Below the pieces are notes generated by a model, which ran no database searches, was not told where the DNA came from, and was given only the letters and a program-made list of their open reading frames with translations. This document shows positions 1 to 64,000 of a stretch of DNA of 64,000 bases, piece by piece; the first letter of the stretch is position 1; every line of letters starts with the position of its first letter. A program made the position numbers and the translations under genes. The stretch lies in NCBI GenBank assembly GCA_017501645.1, contig JAFVWN010000065.1, positions 17,240 through 81,239 of the forward strand, given 5' to 3'. This stretch comes from Clostridia bacterium (GTDB lineage: Bacteria > Bacillota > Clostridia > Christensenellales > UBA1242).

Positions 1-1
1 T

Positions 2-352
2 ATGCAACAAACAATAACCGCCCTAAAAGAAGCTGAGGAACACAACGGCCCTTCAATTGTTATTGCCTACTGTCCTTGCATTAACCACGGCACAGACCTT
101 TCTAAAACAAATGACCAACAAAAAGATGCTGTTCTTGCAGGTTACTGGAATTTATATAGATACAATCCAAATACAGGACTTACTATTGACCCGCCTGCAC
201 CAAATATGGCATATGTAGACTTCATAAAAACACAATCAAGATACTTTACTCTCGCAAAGAGCAATCCTGAAACAGCAACAAGATTATTTGCCAATGCAGA
301 AAGTTATGCGAAAAACAGATTCAACAAATATGTAAAACTTGCACAAAAATAA
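2..352 (+). CDS. nifJ: Pyruvate:ferredoxin/flavodoxin oxidoreductase, C-terminal fragment (gene begins before window)
   Basis: EAE..GPS.VIAYCPCINHG and AV.AGYW.LYRYNP motifs typical of the PFOR C-terminal TPP domain. Confidence 0.9.
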   Translation: MQQTITALKEAEEHNGPSIVIAYCPCINHGTDLSKTNDQQKDAVLAGYWNLYRYNPNTGLTIDPPAPNMAYVDFIKTQSRYFTLAKSNPETATRLFANAESYAKNRFNKYVKLAQK

Positions 353-387
353 GCAAGAATTTTACAAATAAATAAATTTTACACAAT

Positions 388-418
388 AAAAAGGAACAGT
401 TTTAAACTGTTCCTTTTT
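388..418. terminator. Bidirectional intrinsic terminator
   Basis: aaaaaggaacagttt-t-aaactgttccttttt inverted repeat between convergent nifJ and rplI. Confidence 0.8.
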
Positions 419-427
419 ATATTAAAT

Positions 428-871
428 CTATGCCTTAACAACTGTTAAGTTGATGCTACCGTTTACACCTTTATATAGCTTAACTGGAACTTTGTATTCT
501 CCAGCAACCTTGATTGGTGAAGATAAATCAATTTTCTTCTTATCTATATCATAACCCATTTTTGCAAGTTCTTCTGCAATCTCTTTTGGACCAACAGAGC
601 CAAAAGTTTTACCATTCTCACCCATTTTAACAGCAAGTGTAACCATAATGCTCTCAAGTTTCTTAGCGAGAACTTTTGCAGCTTCTGTTTCTTCTTTAAT
701 TCTTTTTGCTTCAAGAGCTTTTTCTTGAGCATTAATATTCAAGTTTCCAGTGCTTGCAGGTACAGCAAGTTTATTTTTTAGTAAAAAGTTATTTGCATAA
801 CCATCACTAACATTAATAATGTCGCCCTTTCTACCTTGACCTTTAACATCTTTAGATAAAATAACTCTCAT
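428..871 (-). CDS. rplI: 50S ribosomal protein L9
   Basis: [30 protein letters not shown]; GKTFGSV; GGAGG RBS before ATG at 871; TTGACT-17-TATAAT promoter at 931-903. Confidence 0.95.
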
Positions 872-1046
872 TTTTATAGCCTCCAAAATACTTAGTATCT
901 TTATTATACTAATCAAACCCCATAAAGTCAAACAAAATTAAAACTCACATAAAAAAGACCTAGTTACAAAGATTGTTTGGATTTATTCTAACATTTTTGC
1001 ATAATCATTTTTAATTCTTAATTTTTCATTTATATAATAACTATCA

Positions 1047-1230
1047 ACAATTCATCATTTATCATTCTTCTTTCATCACTGCAAAACTGCCAAGTTTTGG
1101 CTTATACTCTCCCCCTTTGGTGCAAGCACCACCTTTCCCCCGTCCGGGGGCACCAAGATAATTGAAGTTTGTTTTTAATTGTATATTAACATTCCCTAAT
1201 TCATCATTCTTCATTTTTCATTCATCATTG
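1047..1230. repeat. Downstream cassette copy 1: heptamer tandem repeats (TCATTCA/TCATTCT-like) flanking a GC-rich palindromic core (1108-1159)
   Basis: Homologous, in the same orientation, to 63257-63437; core ctccccctttggtg..caccacctttcccccgtccgggg.caccaagat. Confidence 0.85.
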
Positions 1231-1234
1231 TATA

Positions 1235-1262
1235 AAAAAATAGAGGTCACCCTCTATTTTTT
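1235..1262 (-). terminator. Hairpin abutting the stop codon of the DGR-like target gene (terminator, possibly also a DGR homing hairpin)
   Basis: aaaaaatagagg-tcac-cctctatttttt, 4-nt loop. Confidence 0.7.
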
Positions 1263-2742
1263 ATATACTAATTCTTAATGCCGGACGCACGCCGTAATTG
1301 CAGTCCGTGACATAATAAGTGGTGGAGAGGAAGCCACCAGCAGTAACATCGCAGGCAGAAGAAGCCAACGGACCCGCCGAACGGGTCCAGTAATAGCAGG
1401 TTCCTCCACTTGGATGTGTTGCTGTTACATATGAGGTGTTTGTAAACTTATAACAATAATTCCCTAACGTAAAGTCCGTTGGACTACATAGCATTTTTGT
1501 GTTAGTGTTTGTAAATAATCCTGCACTATTATAGTAGTCCCAATATGATAAACAATATATTTTATCTTCGGTTGTAACACCTGTCGTGTTGCTTGTTGCC
1601 GTATCATAATTTCCGGTTATATTATTCCCCACTGTCGTTGTAGATATTAATTCTTGCTCGCCACTTGTAAATGCACTTGTATAGAATGTGCCATTGAGCC
1701 ATGTTCGAAGTTCGCTGTTTATCCATTGATTTGGGTCATCACTGGTTCCCGCTGTTCCGTCTGCATCTGTGTTACTTGTATAAAATCGTATATCCGCTGT
1801 TAGTGCTAAATAACTCATTATTTCAAGTTCGCTATCACTTCCGCTTGTATATGCTTCATAGTTTAAGATTATCCACCTTATTGGTTCTACTTTGAACCAT
1901 GTATATTCTGTTGTACTAGATGACCCCACAGTTTCCCCGTTTAAATATGTGTAACTGCTACTATACACATATCTATTTCCTCTTGCATATATGTTTCCAT
2001 CTGTATACTGATATGCTTGCCATGTCCTTGTTCTTACTGTATATGTATTCACTGCTGTTGGACTATTACTATTATACCAACTCTCTAAGGTTGTATTCAT
2101 GCTTGAACCAACATATGTTTGCGGATAGTTTCCAAAATCCACATAGTACATATTCAATCCAGCACTTGGATTTCCCACAGCAATAGTGTCCGTTGATATT
2201 GACACATTTGTTACTATCTCTACACTATTCTCATCTATTACTGTATCTGCACTTATATTTACTATTGCTCCTTCTTCTGCATAAATTGATGGACCATAAT
2301 TTGCAGTGTTTCCTGTTATTGTCCCTGCATTTATATTACAAGTTCCTCCAGATGACACATATATTGCTCCTCCATAAGTTGCACTACAACCTGTTAGTGT
2401 TCCTCCTTCCATTGTAAAAGTCGCTCCCTCACTTATAAAGATTGCTCCTCCATATGTGTTTGTATGGTTTTGTATTGTTCCTCCAATCATTATAAATGTT
2501 GAGTCTGGCTCAAGAAACACTGCTCCGCCTTTATAACTTGTGCTTTGTCCTTGTGCAGGAGATGTTTCATCTGCCATTGCAAAATAATTTGCTTCATATC
2601 TTGTTTTATTGACTGGAACCTTTTCTTTTTCTACTTTTTCAGTTTTATTACCGTTTGAAATCATAAGAAAAGACATACATAAACTTGTTATGCACATTAT
2701 TGGTAATATTATTGTTAATAATATCTTAAATCTTTTCTTCAT
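1261..2742 (-). CDS. Secreted/membrane-anchored surface protein: GGA(I/V)-repeat beta-helix-like stalk plus C-terminal DUF6273-like (C-type-lectin-like) domain; probable DGR target
   Basis: N-terminal signal/TM segment; GGAVF/GGAIF/GGAIY repeats; VEPIRW, SELRTWLN..FY..AF, EDKIYCLS, YWTRSA...GVRPALRI motifs. Confidence 0.8.
   Translation of the reverse strand: MKKRFKILLTIILPIMCITSLCMSFLMISNGNKTEKVEKEKVPVNKTRYEANYFAMADETSPAQGQSTSYKGGAVFLEPDSTFIMIGGTIQNHTNTYGGAIFISEGATFTMEGGTLTGCSATYGGAIYVSSGGTCNINAGTITGNTANYGPSIYAEEGAIVNISADTVIDENSVEIVTNVSISTDTIAVGNPSAGLNMYYVDFGNYPQTYVGSSMNTTLESWYNSNSPTAVNTYTVRTRTWQAYQYTDGNIYARGNRYVYSSSYTYLNGETVGSSSTTEYTWFKVEPIRWIILNYEAYTSGSDSELEIMSYLALTADIRFYTSNTDADGTAGTSDDPNQWINSELRTWLNGTFYTSAFTSGEQELISTTTVGNNITGNYDTATSNTTGVTTEDKIYCLSYWDYYNSAGLFTNTNTKMLCSPTDFTLGNYCYKFTNTSYVTATHPSGGTCYYWTRSAGPLASSACDVTAGGFLSTTYYVTDCNYGVRPALRISI
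1279..1395 (-). other. Putative DGR variable region VR1
   Basis: Versus 63560-63676: no indels, 33 mismatches in 117 nt, 29 at codon positions 1-2 with third base conserved. Confidence 0.8.
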
Positions 2743-2806
2743 TCTCGCCCCCTATTAAATGGCTCAATGTAATTGGAATTAGTTTTTACATTTATGCAAT
2801 AAATAT

Positions 2807-2915
2807 CCGCAATTCATCATTTATCATTCTTCATTCATCACTGTTTTTAAACCCTTCGGGTTTTGTTCCTGCGGAAAGCGAAAACAAGTTTCGCCTTCAT
2901 TCTTCATTCATCATT
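2807..2915. repeat. Triple-hairpin element (2849-2894) flanked by heptamer repeats, in the presumptive 5' leader of 1261-2742
   Basis: aaaccc-ttc-gggttt / ttcc-tgc-ggaa / gcgaaa-acaag-tttcgc; close homolog at 63400-63510. Confidence 0.85.
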
Positions 2916-2955
2916 AAAAAAACAAATTATTTTTGCTTTCTCTCTTCCTGATACT

Positions 2956-2987
2956 AGTCTACCCCCCCCCCCCCGATTTTTTGTCAA
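2956..2987 (-). promoter_or_regulatory. sigmaA-type promoter with G13 tract in the spacer (candidate phase-variable promoter)
   Basis: Minus strand TTGACA-aaaaatc-G13-TAGACT; spacer 20 nt. Confidence 0.75.
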
Positions 2988-3065
2988 GCAATTTAAGTTC
3001 TTATTTCAAAAATATTGAATAAAAACATTATGTTTTTTACAAACTATCATAAAAAGGAGATAATT

Positions 3066-3353
3066 ATGTTTGATTTAAAATGTAAAAGACAAGGTTGTAA
3101 ATTCAATCAAAATTGTAACTGCACAGCACACAATGTAAAAGTTGACAACACCACTAAATGTGAAACCTATGAAGACAGTAAAAATCCACAAATGCAACAA
3201 GATAAAATACCTCAACCACCAACAAGAAAAAACATCTGTGTTTCTTGTGATGCAAAATGTCTTTTTAATCAAGACCACACCTGCAAAGCCAATGGAATTA
3301 CAGTAATAACAAATGACTTTGCCCCTGAATGCTGTACATTTCTACCAAAATAA
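3066..3353 (+). CDS. Small Cys-rich protein with two DUF1540-like repeats
   Basis: Two C..(x)C.FN...C.A..(I/V).V......C.T(Y/F) units; AAGGAG RBS. Confidence 0.7.
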   Translation: MFDLKCKRQGCKFNQNCNCTAHNVKVDNTTKCETYEDSKNPQMQQDKIPQPPTRKNICVSCDAKCLFNQDHTCKANGITVITNDFAPECCTFLPK

Positions 3354-3421
3354 AAAGAGCAATTGCTCTTTTTTTGTTACTTTTTTGTTTAAAAATCAAC
3401 AACATTGTGCAAAAATTATAT

Positions 3422-3649
3422 ATGATAAAATATATTTCTGTAATTGCAAAAATGTCTAGCACTGGAAAAGTTTCACCGCTTTCAATCATTTGGGAAGACG
3501 GCAGAGAATTTTCTATTGATAAAATTATTGATTGTCGTCCTAAAGCATCCACAAAAGGCGGTGGAAAGGGTCTTCGCTATACTGTTAAAATTAAAGGTCA
3601 AGAAAAGTATTTATTCTTGAACGAATACCTTTGGTTTATCGAATTATAG
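3422..3649 (+). CDS. Small conserved protein of the type found next to dinB in Clostridia
   Basis: KY(I/V).V.A.....G...P..I.WEDGR.F.ID.I.D.R..AS.K.GG.G.RY...I.G pattern; convergent with dinB. Confidence 0.65.
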   Translation: MIKYISVIAKMSSTGKVSPLSIIWEDGREFSIDKIIDCRPKASTKGGGKGLRYTVKIKGQEKYLFLNEYLWFIEL

Positions 3650-3730
3650 ACCTTTTTGCTAGTTCCAAACACTAATCTCACATCTTTAATCTTATACAAT
3701 TTCTTTGTCTATTTTTTAATAAATTTATTT

Positions 3731-4987
3731 TTACCAGCTATCAACTTCTCCTCCAGTTTTCTCTTTACTTAAAGCACCTAAATCACCCTTTATATTCATT
3801 TCTGCAAGATGGCTGTCTGTAAGCATAATGCCTTTATTTATAATGGTTCTGCCAAACCTATCTCGCATATGTTCAATTGTTTCTTCAAGCTTGACTAGTT
3901 TGTTTCTTTTTGTATTATCTGTGCAAAAATCAAGTTGTTCTTGGTCTGTGAAATCACTTACAGACACACCGAGTCCTCTTATTAACAAACCTCCCCACGA
4001 AAAATGCTTTTTAAACAACGAAAAAGCCTCATTTGCTATTTCCGTACTAAGACAAGTGGGTCTATCAAACTTTTTAGTCCTCATAACACTATGTAGGTCA
4101 TTTGTAGTTATTGTGAGAGAGACCGTTCTCGCAAACTTAAAACCGTCATTTTTCATTCTCGAACAAACACTTTCGCTTAAAAGAGTTAAAAGAGCATAGA
4201 CATCATCATCTGTTACAATATCCCTATAATAAGTAATGCTATTACCAACAGACTTTATTTCCTCCCTATCCTCATATGCTCTCACAGGGTCTTGGTCTTG
4301 CCCCCTTGCATACGCTTGAAGAACCTCACCCCACTTACCTAGTTTACTCACAAGAATTTTTTTGCTGAATGTTGCAAGTTCACCAATGGTTTTTATTGTA
4401 AGTTTTTCTAATTTCTCTTTCGTTGCTCTTCCAACATATAAAAGGTCACTTGCTGGAAGTCTCCACACCATTTGCTTAAAATTGTCTTTATCAATAATTG
4501 TAACGGCATCCGGCTTTTTTATATCCGAACCAAGTTTTGCAAAAACCTTATTAAAACTTACGCCAATTGAAACGGTAAGTCCAATTTCTTCCTTTACTCT
4601 TTTTCTAATTTCTTCCGCTATAAGATACCCATCACCATTGTGTCTTGGAGAAGTTGTAACATCAAGCCACGCCTCATCAATACCAAAGGGTTCAACTTGG
4701 TCTGTATAATCAAGATATATCTTTCTTACAGCTCTTGAATACTTTAAATACATATCGTGTCTTGCTGGAACACAGACAATCCCAGGACAAAGTTTTTCAG
4801 CTTCAAAAATAGGCATACCTGTTTTAACACCCGCCTTTTTTGCCAGCATATTTTTTGCCAGCACTATACCATGCCTATCCTCTTTCTTCCCACAAACAGC
4901 AACAGCTTTACCCTGAAGCTCTGGGTTTAATAGACACTCAACAGACGCATAAAAATTATTCAAATCCGAATGCAATATTGTTCTCAT
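3731..4987 (-). CDS. dinB: DNA polymerase IV (Y-family)
   Basis: ILHSDLNNFYASVE, GIDEAWLD, SIGVSFNKVFAKLGSD.KKPD. Confidence 0.95.
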   Translation of the reverse strand: MRTILHSDLNNFYASVECLLNPELQGKAVAVCGKKEDRHGIVLAKNMLAKKAGVKTGMPIFEAEKLCPGIVCVPARHDMYLKYSRAVRKIYLDYTDQVEPFGIDEAWLDVTTSPRHNGDGYLIAEEIRKRVKEEIGLTVSIGVSFNKVFAKLGSDIKKPDAVTIIDKDNFKQMVWRLPASDLLYVGRATKEKLEKLTIKTIGELATFSKKILVSKLGKWGEVLQAYARGQDQDPVRAYEDREEIKSVGNSITYYRDIVTDDDVYALLTLLSESVCSRMKNDGFKFARTVSLTITTNDLHSVMRTKKFDRPTCLSTEIANEAFSLFKKHFSWGGLLIRGLGVSVSDFTDQEQLDFCTDNTKRNKLVKLEETIEHMRDRFGRTIINKGIMLTDSHLAEMNIKGDLGALSKEKTGGEVDSW

Positions 4988-4993
4988 AGTTTT

Positions 4994-5022
4994 ATTATAT
5001 ATCAAACAAATGTTCTAAGCAA
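4994..5022 (-). promoter_or_regulatory. dinB promoter with LexA (SOS/Cheo) box in the spacer
   Basis: TTGCTT-17-TATAAT on minus strand; GAAC-ATTT-GTTT at 5015-5004 matches the Firmicute GAAC-N4-GTTC box with one mismatch. Confidence 0.75.
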
Positions 5023-5160
5023 GTGTTTTTTACCATTTTTCATATTTGTTTTTAACAAAAATTCATAAAAAAATTAAAAAAGGTTATTTTTTTAGGCTCA
5101 AAAGATTTTATTTTTCAAAAATACTATGATATAATACTAGTAAATATGGAGGTTTTACTC

Positions 5161-5904
5161 ATGGAACAATATGTTGCAAATTCTTTTGACAAAAACTATG
5201 CAGCCGCTTGGAGTGCTGACCAAGGTGGCTTTTCTTACCAATTGGCACAAAATTTACTTAACTATTTAAGTAGAAATAAAATCGTAGCAAAATCTTGTCT
5301 TGATATTTGCTGTGGTACTGGCGAGTTTTTAAGTTACTTTGCAAAAGCTGGTCTTGCTTGTGCCGGTACTGAAGTTGCTAAGAGTATGGTTGAATATTCT
5401 CTTGCAAAATACCCAAACATTGCTTTTACCCTTGCAAATAAAATTAACGACATCCCTGTAAAAGGCAAATTCGATATTATCACTTGTAACCACGATGTTA
5501 TCAATATGCTTGAAAGATTTAGCGAGTGGGAAGCAATGTTTAAAGAAGTTCACTCTACTCTTAACAAAAATGGTATCTTTATGTTTGACTTCTATACTAA
5601 GAAGAAACTTGAGAACTGGAACGAAGTTGTGTACGAATCAAGTGAAGCTATGGACCATGTTCGCTCTATCAAAAAAGGTATGGATAACAAGTGCGTAATC
5701 GAAGAAATATATTATGTAAAAAATAAAGAAGACCTTTATAATAAAACTTTTGACATTATGGTTGAATCTTATTTTGAAAATGAACAAATTTTTGACGCTC
5801 TTAAAAAAGCCGGTTTCAAAACTATAGAAATTTGTGATTTCTCTCTTGAAAAAACATCTAACTATAATGACAGAAATCGTATCCACATCATTGCTAAAAA
5901 GTAA
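5161..5904 (+). CDS. Class I SAM-dependent methyltransferase
   Basis: CLDICCGTG motif I; FDIITC; L..NGIFMFD. Confidence 0.9.
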   Translation: MEQYVANSFDKNYAAAWSADQGGFSYQLAQNLLNYLSRNKIVAKSCLDICCGTGEFLSYFAKAGLACAGTEVAKSMVEYSLAKYPNIAFTLANKINDIPVKGKFDIITCNHDVINMLERFSEWEAMFKEVHSTLNKNGIFMFDFYTKKKLENWNEVVYESSEAMDHVRSIKKGMDNKCVIEEIYYVKNKEDLYNKTFDIMVESYFENEQIFDALKKAGFKTIEICDFSLEKTSNYNDRNRIHIIAKK

Positions 5905-6052
5905 TTTTTTAAGCCCCTACTTTTGTAGAGGCTTTTTCTTTTCTTCCCCACTTTACTCCACATTAAAAATATATGGTATTGACTTTTTATTCGTTTAGTG
6001 ATACACTATGCAAACTCAAAACAAGAAAACATTTGAGGAGAAAAGGATTATT

Positions 6053-6472
6053 ATGGAATTTGAAAAATATGCCACAGCATTAACCCTTTACAGCAAACAC
6101 ATTGCTCAACACGAAAAAAATTGTCAACAATTAACAACTGCCAAAATTTTCGCAGAGCTTTGTACTCAAAGAGTTTTAAATGCTAAAGGCAGAGAAAAAA
6201 CTAAACAAATAAAAATTGCCAAACAAAAACAAGAACAATACGGAGATGTTGTTGAAAATTATAATTCAACATATGAAAAATGTAGAGGTTGTCTACTTCT
6301 TGCAACTAAATGTGCACCATCTTCAAAAACAAAACAAGATGTTCTTGACACTCTTACATCTTTAGACTCTAAACATTTAAGTTATAGAGATGTTTGTTCT
6401 ATTGTTTCTCGTTTCCTTGAAGCAGATATGGCAAATCTTAAAGAAACTGAAGAAGAACCTGCAAATGCATAA
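6053..6472 (+). CDS. Hypothetical helical protein
   Basis: ORF with purine-rich RBS, upstream TTGACT and downstream hairpin; no recognised motif; start uncertain (6008 possible). Confidence 0.55.
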   Translation: MEFEKYATALTLYSKHIAQHEKNCQQLTTAKIFAELCTQRVLNAKGREKTKQIKIAKQKQEQYGDVVENYNSTYEKCRGCLLLATKCAPSSKTKQDVLDTLTSLDSKHLSYRDVCSIVSRFLEADMANLKETEEEPANA

Positions 6473-35586: not shown

Positions 35587-35946
35587 TGGTGGAGGCGGCG
35601 GGAATCGAACCCGCGTCCAAACAACCTCGTAAATACCCTTCTCCGTGCCACAGTCAACTGTTAATGGGGTCGCCTAAAATCTAAAGTTGACTAAATCTTT
35701 TAGGCTATTCACATCTAAATCTCGCAACCCACTCCAATGTGAACAAAAGTAAATTGCACCCTACTTTTTGTTTGACAAGTAACCATATCCAGTAAGCCTA
35801 TACAGTTACCCGTACTGCATTAATTAAGCAGCAAGAGCTAAATTTTCGTTAGCGTTTATTTTTTGACACCGATTTTAAGCTTCTTTGTCCCAAGCTAGCA
35901 CGCTTCTAATATTTACTCATTTGCCTGTCGAAACCAGTACGCCCCC
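35587..35946 (-). ncRNA. ssrA: tmRNA; tag peptide (A)ANENLALAA* at 35853-35824
   Basis: 5' GGGGGCGTACTGGTTTCGAC; 3' T-arm GCGGGTTCGATTCCCGC and CGCCTCCACCA; G3:U pair; directly downstream of smpB. Confidence 0.96.
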
Positions 35947-61346: not shown

Positions 61347-61478
61347 AAATTTTCTCCTTAACTATATATAGTGTATCATATTTCAAACAAAAATCAAAAT
61401 AATTTAACAAAAGTTTTACTTTTCTTCAAAGTGGTGATAAACTATAGTTATTCCAAAAATAAAGGCGAGGTAAAAGTA

Positions 61479-62168
61479 ATGATATCAAAACATGTAAATG
61501 ATATGTGCCCAGTAACCAATGGTGCTAGGCATCAAAATGCTCCAATACCTGAAGAAGGCAAATGGGTGCATGCAAAAGAAATTAAAGACATTAGCGGTCT
61601 TACTCACGGTGTAGGTGGATGTGCTCCTCAACAAGGAACTTGTAAACTTACTCTTAATGTGAAAGACGGAATCATCAAAGAAGCTTTGATTGAAACAATT
61701 GGTTGTTCTGGTATGACTCACTCTGCTGCAATGGCAAGTGAAATCCTTCCAGGCAAAACAATCTTAGAAGCAGTCAACACAGACTTAGTATGTGATGCTA
61801 TTAATGTAGCTATGCGAGAACTATTCTTGCAAATCATCTATGGAAGAACTCAATCAGCTTTCAGTGACCAAGGTCTTGAAATTGGCGCTGGTATGGAAGA
61901 CTTAGGTAAAGGTCTTTGCTCTCAAGTTGGTACAATGTACTCAACAGAACTTAAAGGTCCAAGATACCTAAATACTGCTGAGGGTTACATCACAAAACAA
62001 GGTCTTGACAAAAATGGAGAAATTATTGGTTATGAATATATCGCAACTGGTAAACTTCTTGAAGCTATCAAGGCTGGTGTTGACCCAAGAGAGGCTTTGG
62101 CTCAAAATACAAAAACTTATGGTCGTTTCAAAGAAGCAGTTAAAGTAATCGACCCAAGAAAGGAGTAG
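61479..62168 (+). CDS. NifU/IscU-like protein associated with GGGtGRT protein
   Basis: GLTHG.G.CAPQQG.CKLTLNVK.G.I.EAL.ET.GCSGMTHSA, LVCDAIN. Confidence 0.85.
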   Translation: MISKHVNDMCPVTNGARHQNAPIPEEGKWVHAKEIKDISGLTHGVGGCAPQQGTCKLTLNVKDGIIKEALIETIGCSGMTHSAAMASEILPGKTILEAVNTDLVCDAINVAMRELFLQIIYGRTQSAFSDQGLEIGAGMEDLGKGLCSQVGTMYSTELKGPRYLNTAEGYITKQGLDKNGEIIGYEYIATGKLLEAIKAGVDPREALAQNTKTYGRFKEAVKVIDPRKE

Positions 62169-62171
62169 TTT

Positions 62172-63167
62172 ATGGTAGAATTTGAAGGTAAAGAAAAAAG
62201 AATGCCATCAATCAATGAGGCTCTTAAAAAATATGGTTTTAAAAACCTTGAAGAAGCTGAGGCTCTTACTCTTGAAAAAGGCATTAATGTACATGATGTT
62301 GTAAAAGGTATTCAAACAATTTGTTTTGAAAACGCAGTTTGGGCTTACACTCTTGGTACTGCTATTGCAATTAAAGCTGGTGCTAAAAATGCAGTAGAAG
62401 CAGCAAAATATATTGGTGAAGGTCTTCAAGCATTCTGCGTACACGGTTCTGTTGCGGACCATAGAAAAGTTGGTATTGGTCACGGTAACCTTGGTGCTAT
62501 GCTTCTTGACGAACAAACTAAATGTTTCTGTTTCCTAGCAGGTCACGAAAGCTTTGCTGCTGCTGAAGGTGCTATTGGTATTGCATCAACAGCAAATAAA
62601 GCAAGAAAAACTCCACTTAAGGTTATCTTAAATGGTCTTGGAAAAGATGCTGCATACATCATTTCAAGAATTAATGGTTTCACTTATGTGAAGACTGAAT
62701 ATGATTTTGCAAATGCAAAACTTAACATTATTGAAGAAAAAGCTTTCTCTGATGGCGAAAGAGCTAAAGTTAAAGTTTATGGTGCAAATGATGTTAACGA
62801 AGGTGTTGCTATTATGGAACACGAACAAGTTGATGTTTCTATCACTGGTAACTCTACTAACCCTACTCGTTTCCAACACCCAGTAGCAGGTACTTATAAA
62901 AAGAATTGTTACGAAACTGGAAAAGCATATTTCTCAGTTGCTAGTGGTGGCGGTACAGGTCGTACTCTTCACCCAGACAATGTTGCTGCCGGTCCTGCAT
63001 CTTATGGTATGACTGATACTATGGGAAGAATGCACGGAGATGCTCAATTTGCTGGTTCTTCATCAGTTCCTGCACATGTTGATATGATGGGATTCATTGG
63101 TATGGGTAACAACCCAATGGTAGGAGCAACAGTTGCTCTTGCAGTTGCAGTTGACCTAGCAAAATAA
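62172..63167 (+). CDS. GGGtGRT family protein (uncharacterised)
   Basis: Literal SGGGTGRTLHPDN motif; GHESFAAAEGA; GNSTNPTRFQH. Confidence 0.92.
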   Translation: MVEFEGKEKRMPSINEALKKYGFKNLEEAEALTLEKGINVHDVVKGIQTICFENAVWAYTLGTAIAIKAGAKNAVEAAKYIGEGLQAFCVHGSVADHRKVGIGHGNLGAMLLDEQTKCFCFLAGHESFAAAEGAIGIASTANKARKTPLKVILNGLGKDAAYIISRINGFTYVKTEYDFANAKLNIIEEKAFSDGERAKVKVYGANDVNEGVAIMEHEQVDVSITGNSTNPTRFQHPVAGTYKKNCYETGKAYFSVASGGGTGRTLHPDNVAAGPASYGMTDTMGRMHGDAQFAGSSSVPAHVDMMGFIGMGNNPMVGATVALAVAVDLAK

Positions 63168-63256: not shown

Positions 63257-63517
63257 ACAATTCATCATTTTTCATTCGTCATTAAAAATTGCCAAATTTT
63301 TATTTACATTCTCCCCCTTTGGTGACACAGCCACCACCTTTCCCCCGTCCGGGGACACCAAGATTGTTTGGTTTTTATTTTTCACATTTGTGTTGACATT
63401 CCGCAATTCATCATTTTTCATTCTTCATTCATCATTGTTTCTAAACCCCTTCGGGTTTTGTTCCTACGGAAAGCAAAACTCTGTTTTGCCTTCATTCTTC
63501 ATTCTTCATTCTTCATT
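63257..63517. repeat. Downstream cassette copy 2 (GC core 63310-63364) joined to a triple-hairpin element (63443-63489) and heptamer repeats
   Basis: Homologous to both 1047-1230 and 2807-2915. Confidence 0.85.
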
Positions 63518-63541
63518 ATAAAAAAGCCCTGTGGGGCTTTT

Positions 63542-64000
63542 TTATATACTAATTCTTAAAGCGGGACGCACGCCGCGAGAGTAGTTCGCGACACTATCAC
63601 TGTAGTGGATGAGTCCATTATTACTAACATAGCAGGCACTAGAAGCCGACGAGCCCGCCGAACGGGTCCAGTAACGGCAGGTTCCTCCACTTGGATATGT
63701 TGCTGTTACATATGATGTACTCGTATATTTATAACAATAATTCCCTAACGCAAAGTCCGTTGGACTACATAGTCTTTTTGTGCTAGTGCCTGTAAATAAT
63801 CCAGCACTACTATGGTAATCCCAGCATGATAATAAGTATACTTTATCTTCGGTTGCAACACCTGTAGTGTTGTTTGTCGCTGGATCATAATTTCCGGTTA
63901 TATTATTTCCCACTGTCGTTGTAGATATTATTTCTTGCTCGTCACTTTTGAACGCACTTGTATAGAATGTGCTATTGAGCCATATTCGAAGTTCGCTGTT
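63542..64000 (-). CDS. 3' end of a paralog of 1261-2742 (DUF6273-like domain); probable second DGR target, truncated by window edge
   Basis: Frame open to window end; SELRIWLN, EDKVYLLS, YWTRSAG...GVRPALRISI. Confidence 0.85.
   Translation of the reverse strand, partial: NSELRIWLNSTFYTSAFKSDEQEIISTTTVGNNITGNYDPATNNTTGVATEDKVYLLSCWDYHSSAGLFTGTSTKRLCSPTDFALGNYCYKYTSTSYVTATYPSGGTCRYWTRSAGSSASSACYVSNNGLIHYSDSVANYSRGVRPALRISI
63560..63676 (-). other. Putative DGR variable region VR2
   Basis: See VR1; retains AAT AAT and AAC codons where VR1 has GCT GGT and GAC. Confidence 0.8.

Follow-up and report, generated by a model that had tools for sequence, protein, structure and literature searches.

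Why do two surface-protein genes, situated near the two ends of one stretch of clostridial chromosome, resemble each other closely and yet differ sharply just before their stop codons? We addressed this question for 64,000 nt (hereafter the window) of a Clostridia bacterium (GCA_017501645.1, contig JAFVWN010000065.1, positions 17,240 to 81,239 of the forward strand; G000:C65:17240-81239 in our numbering). The source assembly, G000, comprises 1.46 Mb in 67 contigs at 33% GC, with a completeness of 97.87% and contigs kept down to 1.5 kb. An earlier note on this DNA had proposed that both genes were remote targets of one diversity-generating retroelement (DGR), a system in which a reverse transcriptase (RT) copies a template repeat (TR) into the variable region (VR) of a target gene. 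Our analysis indicates that the tails are very likely DGR-written VRs on remote chromosomal targets of the DUF6273 class, which now look orphaned or dormant. The two genes and the segments in question are as follows.

1261-2742, minus strand: gene A, an open reading frame (ORF) of 493 aa
63542-64000, minus strand: 3' part of gene B, which extends beyond the window and is truncated by the end of contig C65
1283-1383, minus strand: TR-homologous stretch of gene A, placed by motif positions and by codon alignment to the TR of a sister species (genome G008)
1294-1359, minus strand: hypervariable core of gene A, 22 codons, mainly of the NNY type (N, any base; Y, T or C)
63564-63664, minus strand: TR-homologous stretch of gene B, placed by motifs at C65:80803 and C65:80893
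63575-63640, minus strand: hypervariable core of gene B, placed by comparison with its paralog

The product of gene A begins with a hydrophobic anchor, followed by GGA(I/V)Y-type repeats that weakly match Chlam_PMP and by a C-terminal DUF6273 domain (residues 332-492); the full-length counterpart of gene B is P0009, a protein of 485 aa. The TR-homologous stretch of gene A is bounded by the CGTTCGGCGGG flank (1373-1383) and the GGCGTGCGTCC flank (1283-1293). Window positions 1261-1719 (minus) were aligned without gaps to 63542-64000 (minus) over 459 nt, and all counts were scripted. The segment 1279-1395 contained 33 mismatches in 117 nt, compared with 37 in the 324 nt upstream (88.6% identity) and none in the 18 nt downstream (Fisher p = 5e-5). 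By codon position 1/2/3, the mismatches were distributed 16/13/4 within the segment and 9/12/16 upstream, and the shortage at third positions was significant against the expected one third (binomial p = 0.009). Twenty-four of the 39 codons differed, 19 of them nonsynonymously; 20 were changed at positions 1-2 only and retained an identical third base, which was T or C in 17 cases, and the other four were changed at position 3 only. The GC content of the segment was 56.4% in both genes, compared with 37.0% and 38.0% upstream. These values reproduced every count that the earlier note had given. The concentration at codon positions 1-2 (29 of 33 mismatches) is found at the 3' end of the ORF, and the core stops 11 codons before the stop codon. 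Both the mismatch density and the third-position deficit of the segment are beyond chance.

A BLAST search with the tail against the whole assembly, together with the flank motifs, showed that the two-gene picture was real and incomplete: the genome holds five copies, three more than the window had revealed.

G000 C65:18500: tail A, gene A
G000 C65:80781: tail B, gene B
G000 C24:1959: tail C, paralog C
G000 C24:41459: tail D, paralog D
G000 C23:13681: tail E, paralog E

Each tail is the terminal ~100 nt of a paralogous ORF of ~490 aa, whose product starts with a hydrophobic anchor, continues with GGA(I/V)Y-type repeats (weakly matching Chlam_PMP) and closes with DUF6273. An adenine-free 24-nt 5' flank is identical in four of the five, gene A departing from it by three C/T changes, and the 11-nt GC-rich 3' flank GGCGTGCGTCC is identical in all five. 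Between the two flanks lie 21-22 codons, mainly NNY. The core falls into two length classes, namely 5 codons, GTN and 5 codons in A, B and C, and 4, GTN and 5 in D and E; instead of two targets of one template, there are thus five targets in two classes. At codon positions 1-2, the cores of paralogs mismatched at 36-61% of sites, whereas third positions within a length class differed at only 1/23, 3/23, 4/23 and 3/21 (4-17%), lower than the corresponding rates in the gene bodies (0.26, 0.38, 0.28 and 0.22). The third-position pattern of the core is the reverse of neutral drift, and the fact that third positions are less divergent in the core than in the body fits a resetting by template after the paralogs had diverged. 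The VRs have a GC content of ~50-56% in a genome of 33% GC. In an alignment of gene A with 28 homologs, other G000 paralogs included, the same ~22 residues were hypervariable in the 29 proteins between fixed YWTRSAG...GVRPAL flanks.

The surface-protein family has at least seven copies in G000. Two paralogs, at C65:~4650-6155 (upstream of the window) and C34:~69000-70376, carry DUF6273 tails and lack both the GC-rich flanks and the NNY core. Their tails are AT-rich (in the C65 copy, F, tail and body both have a GC content of 0.37), and they serve as internal non-target controls.

A complete counterpart of the system was found in G008, a genome of the same genus. On its contig C43 (7.4 kb), a DUF6273 target with a VR is followed in turn by a DUF559 ORF, an Avd-like ORF, the TR, the RT and dnaG. 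The TR is a non-coding A-rich repeat between the Avd-like ORF and the RT. The RT has 376 aa, matches RVT_1 at E 5e-19, and contains IGNQTSQ and YMDD, which we take to be DGR-typical motifs; its best phage matches by tblastn were DGR-bearing gut phages such as nd12 (~40% identity), Faecalibacterium phages and Bordetella phages. The Avd-like ORF matched Pfam bAvd at E 4.8e-6 (27.5 bits; curated cut-off 40) and the NCBIfam DGR Avd family at E 1e-8 (35.5 bits; curated cut-off 80). One VR lies in cis, and three remote VRs lie on other contigs. G008 therefore holds a DGR cassette, with RT, Avd and TR beside a target whose VR matches the TR. Over codons 0-18, nine of 13 adenine sites and none of 44 non-adenine sites differed between the TR and its own cis VR.

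Two further features of the G008 loci were recorded. An endonuclease-like DUF559 ORF (Pfam E 2e-27; L083, G008:C43, 4751-5155, minus strand) stands between the target gene and Avd. The targets L084, L085 and L083 have in common a conserved ~90-nt stretch at the 3' end and downstream, after the VR, which includes a GC-rich inverted repeat and may be a recognition element for homing.

The five G000 tails were aligned to the G008 TR with codon gaps placed by the analyst, one each in A, B and C and two each in D and E. On this basis, 30 of the 31 TR adenines corresponded to positions that vary among the five tails; the same was true of 18 of the 68 non-adenine positions (Fisher p 1e-11). The 21 invariant core columns included no A (T 11, G 5, C 5). 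The AAY-rich template that the earlier note had predicted from genes A and B proved very close to this real TR, which lies beside a DGR-type RT and Avd, so that the template and RT it had called for do occur in a close relative.

No such cassette was found in G000 itself. The PF00078 profile gave no RT match at E<=10, and tblastn gave a best E of 0.63 with the G008 RT, nothing at E<0.01 with 20 further RTs of the family, and a best E of 0.56 with the G008 Avd. When a non-coding TR was sought, the flank motifs were found solely in the five coding tails; two one-mismatch matches, at C31:830 and C24:14574, were unrelated sequence and were rejected. The region upstream of dnaG, where the G008 cassette lies, is intact within a 41.8-kb contig and holds no cassette. 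The A-rich template and RT expected in this genome are therefore missing from its assembly, although their absence from 67 contigs is not proof of absence. Outside the genome, the adenine-free 24-mer flank had no match in JGI metagenome contigs and none in IMG/VR viral contigs; those two collections therefore contain neither the species nor any phage with its TR. A scan of IMG/VR with a 17-mer proposed earlier returned 61 loci, which were treated as chance matches in GC-rich DNA because only 18-28 nt resembled the tails, little more than the motif itself with a few adjacent bases at most. A 20-mer scan of genome contigs gave at least 117 loci, nearly all in high-GC taxa, and the G008 contig (L138) was the one relevant entry among the matches listed. 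The TRs beside 20 RT loci of the family had at most ~18-32 nt in common with the tails, and none was a closer template than that of G008.

We then considered whether diversification is ongoing. Part of the gene A region occurred in 20 public runs, and four of these (X1-X4) contained more than 70% of its sampled words; their contigs were aligned to window positions 1-6000. X1, X3 and X4 (studies P1 and P3) each yielded one 173-nt contig over 1242-1414, which spans the whole VR, with no differences from the window. The depth of this contig equalled that of its flanks (18.3 vs 17.5-26.3, 18.4 vs 18.2-20.4, and 10.0 vs 9.85-12.3, respectively), and the long flanking contigs likewise showed no differences. 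No VR-spanning piece was among those listed for X2, and the other letters listed within gene A derived from contigs of paralogs. Among proteins, three orthologs of paralog D taken from other assemblies (P0037, P0038 and P0039) showed 8, 7 and 4 residue differences, which were confined to alignment columns 15-219 and spared the VR. The VR core was likewise unchanged in a sister cluster, where P0041, P0042 and P0046 differed from P0019 at 11, 7 and 1 residues. The VRs have therefore been stable while strains diverged by 1-2% in protein. The tails look frozen, and diversification does not look ongoing: the active DGR supposed for this genome left no sign either in the three runs or in the VRs of the D orthologs. 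Several points weigh against a frozen state. Logan contigs omit rare variants, one run may itself be the source sample, and the runs carry essentially the same strain, with no differences over kilobases, so that little time separates them.

These observations would be accounted for as follows. As established for DGRs generally and as we infer here, the RT would copy a non-coding TR and misincorporate opposite template adenines, and the resulting complementary DNA (cDNA) would replace the matching 3' part of the target. As a result, an AAY codon in the TR would give rise to NNY, while every non-adenine base, third codon positions included, would be reset to the TR sequence. The five VRs would each occupy the extreme C-terminus of the DUF6273 domain of a ~490-aa membrane-anchored surface paralog. 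In this strain, writing would be a matter of past rather than current activity. The targets are read as orphaned or dormant because the assembly yields neither RT nor Avd nor TR, the VRs lack polymorphism and do not change from sample to sample, some of their differences are not at adenines, and they form two length classes.

A number of findings count against this interpretation. The adenine specificity rests on the TR of another species and on hand-placed gaps, because G000 yields no TR of its own. The 18 non-adenine TR positions that vary among the five VRs do not fit adenine-directed writing, and seven more are fixed as differences from the G008 TR. The three C/T changes of gene A fall within its 5' flank, some third positions differ among the five tails, and the core of the G008 TR (6 codons, GTC, 5) is unlike both VR lengths in G000. 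Judged from the alignment, no single present-day template would account for all the copies. Even in G008, matching the cis VR requires a codon deletion and leaves ~5 non-adenine mismatches in the last five variable codons, in its 3' third, and the Avd-like ORF scores below both curated cut-offs.

Two other explanations have to be weighed against DGR-written VRs that are now orphaned or dormant. An active multi-target DGR may be present, its cassette unassembled, unbinned or on a mobile element, and the five VRs may be rewritten rarely or conditionally; we consider this a serious prospect that falls somewhat short of an even chance. The assembly is in 67 contigs, and repeats among the paralogs disrupt it (a contig end truncates gene B, and gene C begins close to one), which leaves room for a missed cassette; even so, an assembly that is 97.9% complete and reaches down to contigs of 1.5 kb contains no RT, Avd or TR, and the site occupied in G008 is intact and empty. 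RT homologs occurring in 36 of 201 family genomes, many near contig ends or on few-kb contigs, and the VR-like tails without an RT in two further genomes of the genus (G005 and G009) are also consistent with a hidden cassette, as are the 24-nt 5' flank shared by four of five VRs, core third positions conserved above those of the body, and VRs that are still ~50-56% GC in a 33% GC genome. In contrast, three runs show no variation in the VR of gene A at full depth, VRs are unchanged in orthologs that differ elsewhere, the two length classes and non-adenine differences misfit one current template, and the adenine-free 24-mer was not found in IMG/VR or JGI metagenome contigs.

The second explanation dispenses with a retroelement altogether and invokes point mutation under strong diversifying selection on a ligand-binding loop, possibly with gene conversion among paralogs. 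In its favour, the proteins look surface-exposed, their family has at least seven copies, 19 of the 24 differing codons are nonsynonymous, and third-position differences, differences at sites that are non-adenine in the G008 TR and codon indels all occur. However, selection leaves unexplained why T/C third bases stay fixed while positions 1-2 approach saturation, why A is absent from the 21 invariant core columns, and why the variable columns match 30 of 31 adenines of a sister-species TR that lies beside an RT and Avd. Nor does it explain an island of 56% GC inside a gene of 37% GC, or the ordinary AT-rich tails of the two paralogs that lack the GC-rich flanks (0.37 in tail and body of F). 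We therefore regard it as highly improbable.

If the tails are DGR-written VRs whose writing lies in the past, the cassette was either lost or escaped assembly. RT homologs were detected in 36 of 201 sampled genomes of the family, representing 24 of 58 genera. VR-like tails were present in four of the 11 genomes of the genus, G000 included, and an RT in only one of these four. Loss from this strain of the cassette seen beside dnaG in the sister species has, in our estimate, an even chance or marginally better, and we rank it slightly ahead of non-assembly; a cassette residing in unassembled or unbinned DNA and acting rarely is rather less probable than an even chance. Loss is weakened by the division of G000 into 67 contigs, by the many family RT homologs that sit within ~1 kb of a contig end or on few-kb contigs, and by the same-genus genomes G005 and G009 (one G009 tail examined), which have GC-rich NNY-type DUF6273 tails and no RT match. 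Systematic under-assembly explains the pattern in G005 and G009 as well as repeated loss does.

The tails of those two genomes were also compared with their gene bodies. L227, L239, L242 and L249 (G005) and L232 (G009) have a tail GC of 0.48-0.57, compared with 0.34-0.40 in the body, and T/C-rich third positions. In the non-target paralog L247, the frequency of T/C at third positions was 0.29.

The target domain would agree with a DGR origin. Pfam DUF6273 matched gene A at E 1.4e-18 and gene B at E 2.8e-20. All structural neighbours of gene A in the Atlas were DUF6273 proteins (TM 0.75-0.78), frequently fused to TIR, TPR, kinase or LRR domains, and a PDB profile search with the domain returned nothing at E<=1. 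PMC11792537 and PMC10743442 map DGR VRs to the C-terminus of DUF6273 and liken this domain to the C-lectin fold. The C-type-lectin-like fold of the present domains is carried over from those papers by analogy and would agree with the earlier proposal of VRs at the C-terminus of a lectin-like domain, which these sources support once the domain is named as DUF6273.

The closest known systems are the DGRs of gut phages and prophages (nd4 and nd12 with their 'tentaclins', and the Faecalibacterium prophages Lelie, CP11, Roos and Pioen), which have the same target domain, DUF6273. In the Faecalibacterium prophages, the VR lies, as here, at the DUF6273 C-terminus and the fold is described as C-type-lectin-like, and the RT of nd12 is ~40% identical to that of G008. 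Unlike those phage tail or receptor-binding proteins, the present targets are chromosomal cell-envelope proteins amid housekeeping genes, and there are five of them, dispersed in an assembly that lacks the cassette. In target1 of nd4 and nd12, both DUF6273 and the VR are N-terminal, unlike in the present proteins. For cyanobacterial CLec families, PMC7517822 describes one cassette that serves dispersed paralogs with VRs at the 3' end of lectin-type domains, the remote variable proteins being recognised through TR/VR homology. G008, with one cis VR and three remote VRs, fits this multi-target arrangement exactly. The present host belongs to a lineage of gut Clostridia with genomes of ~1-1.5 Mb, its target domain is DUF6273, and the remote targets in G000 stand without a detectable cassette, in contrast to the cyanobacterial case.

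The DGR of Bordetella phage BPP-1 (Mtd, bAvd, TR and bRT) is the prototype of adenine-specific rewriting of AAY codons. In its lectin-fold target protein the VR is C-terminal; a GC-rich 3' boundary element and then a hairpin follow, and an Avd-type accessory protein takes part. The present case would resemble it in AAY rewriting, the C-terminal VR, a putative GC-rich 3' boundary with a hairpin, and Avd, and BPP-type phages were among the tblastn matches of the G008 RT. BPP-1 is a phage system with one cis target, whereas the initiation of mutagenic homing (IMH)-like element and the hairpin proposed here are suggested by conservation and folding. The hairpins in the window are as follows.

1235-1262, minus strand: stem-loop overlapping the gene A stop codon, with a 12-bp stem, a 4-nt loop and a T-run (-10.1 kcal/mol, z -6.7)
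63517-63546, minus strand: stem-loop right after the gene B stop codon (-11.8 kcal/mol, z -6.8)

Equivalent hairpins lie downstream of all five tails, with z about -6.7 for genes A and B. The gene A stem-loop is terminator-like and may also serve as the post-VR hairpin of DGR targets, with a putative role in homing; ordinary terminators fit the hairpins after the stop codons equally well.

Both window targets are surrounded by housekeeping genes (L9, a Pol IV-like gene, ACP synthase, RecX and transfer-messenger RNA (tmRNA)), as had been noted before, and a prophage origin of the two loci was rejected because of this neighbourhood. A chromosomal multi-target DGR such as the earlier note envisaged is seen in G008, where the cassette lies beside dnaG and has remote targets; its cassette is missing from the G000 assembly. 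The tmRNA gene (35587-35946, minus strand; Rfam RF00023, 140 bits) was the sole Rfam match at the gathering threshold in the window. Upstream of the 3' end of gene B lie two adjacent ORFs of 265 and 331 aa (61371-63167, plus strand), which we presume to be GGGtGRT-like. A 37-nt AT-rich intergenic repeat of the AATGATGAATGAA type flanks DUF6273 paralogs at 1193-1229, ~2806-2842 and ~63400-63436 (all minus strand) and has 28 copies on 13 contigs at <=6 substitutions. A 48-nt GC-rich hairpin-like intergenic unit by DUF6273 paralogs (1109-1156, minus strand) has 14 copies on 10 contigs. Neither unit matched an Rfam family. Contig depth was raised ~10-fold over 1001-1200 and 2801-3000 in all four runs.

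The system is a further instance of a known DGR type, and our understanding of how DGRs work is unchanged by it; the mechanism proposed in the earlier note was right in kind and its template nearly right. The present case adds a cellular, chromosomal example with five targets to the DUF6273 class of DGR targets, a class that the cited papers describe for gut phages and prophages. Surveys anchored on RTs and catalogues of metagenome-assembled genomes miss targets of this kind. A more speculative and rather unlikely extension is that DGR-written DUF6273 tails recur in genomes of the genus that have no DGR, the surface repertoire being diversified in bursts through repeated gain and loss of the cassette or through a trans-acting mobile element ('hit-and-run'); if true, burst diversification would leave behind sets of binding specificities that are frozen and heritable. 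A genome of ~1-1.5 Mb that encodes five diversified surface binders has made a notable investment in them, and static VRs without a cassette offer a natural case of the fate of DGR targets after the mutator has gone or fallen silent.

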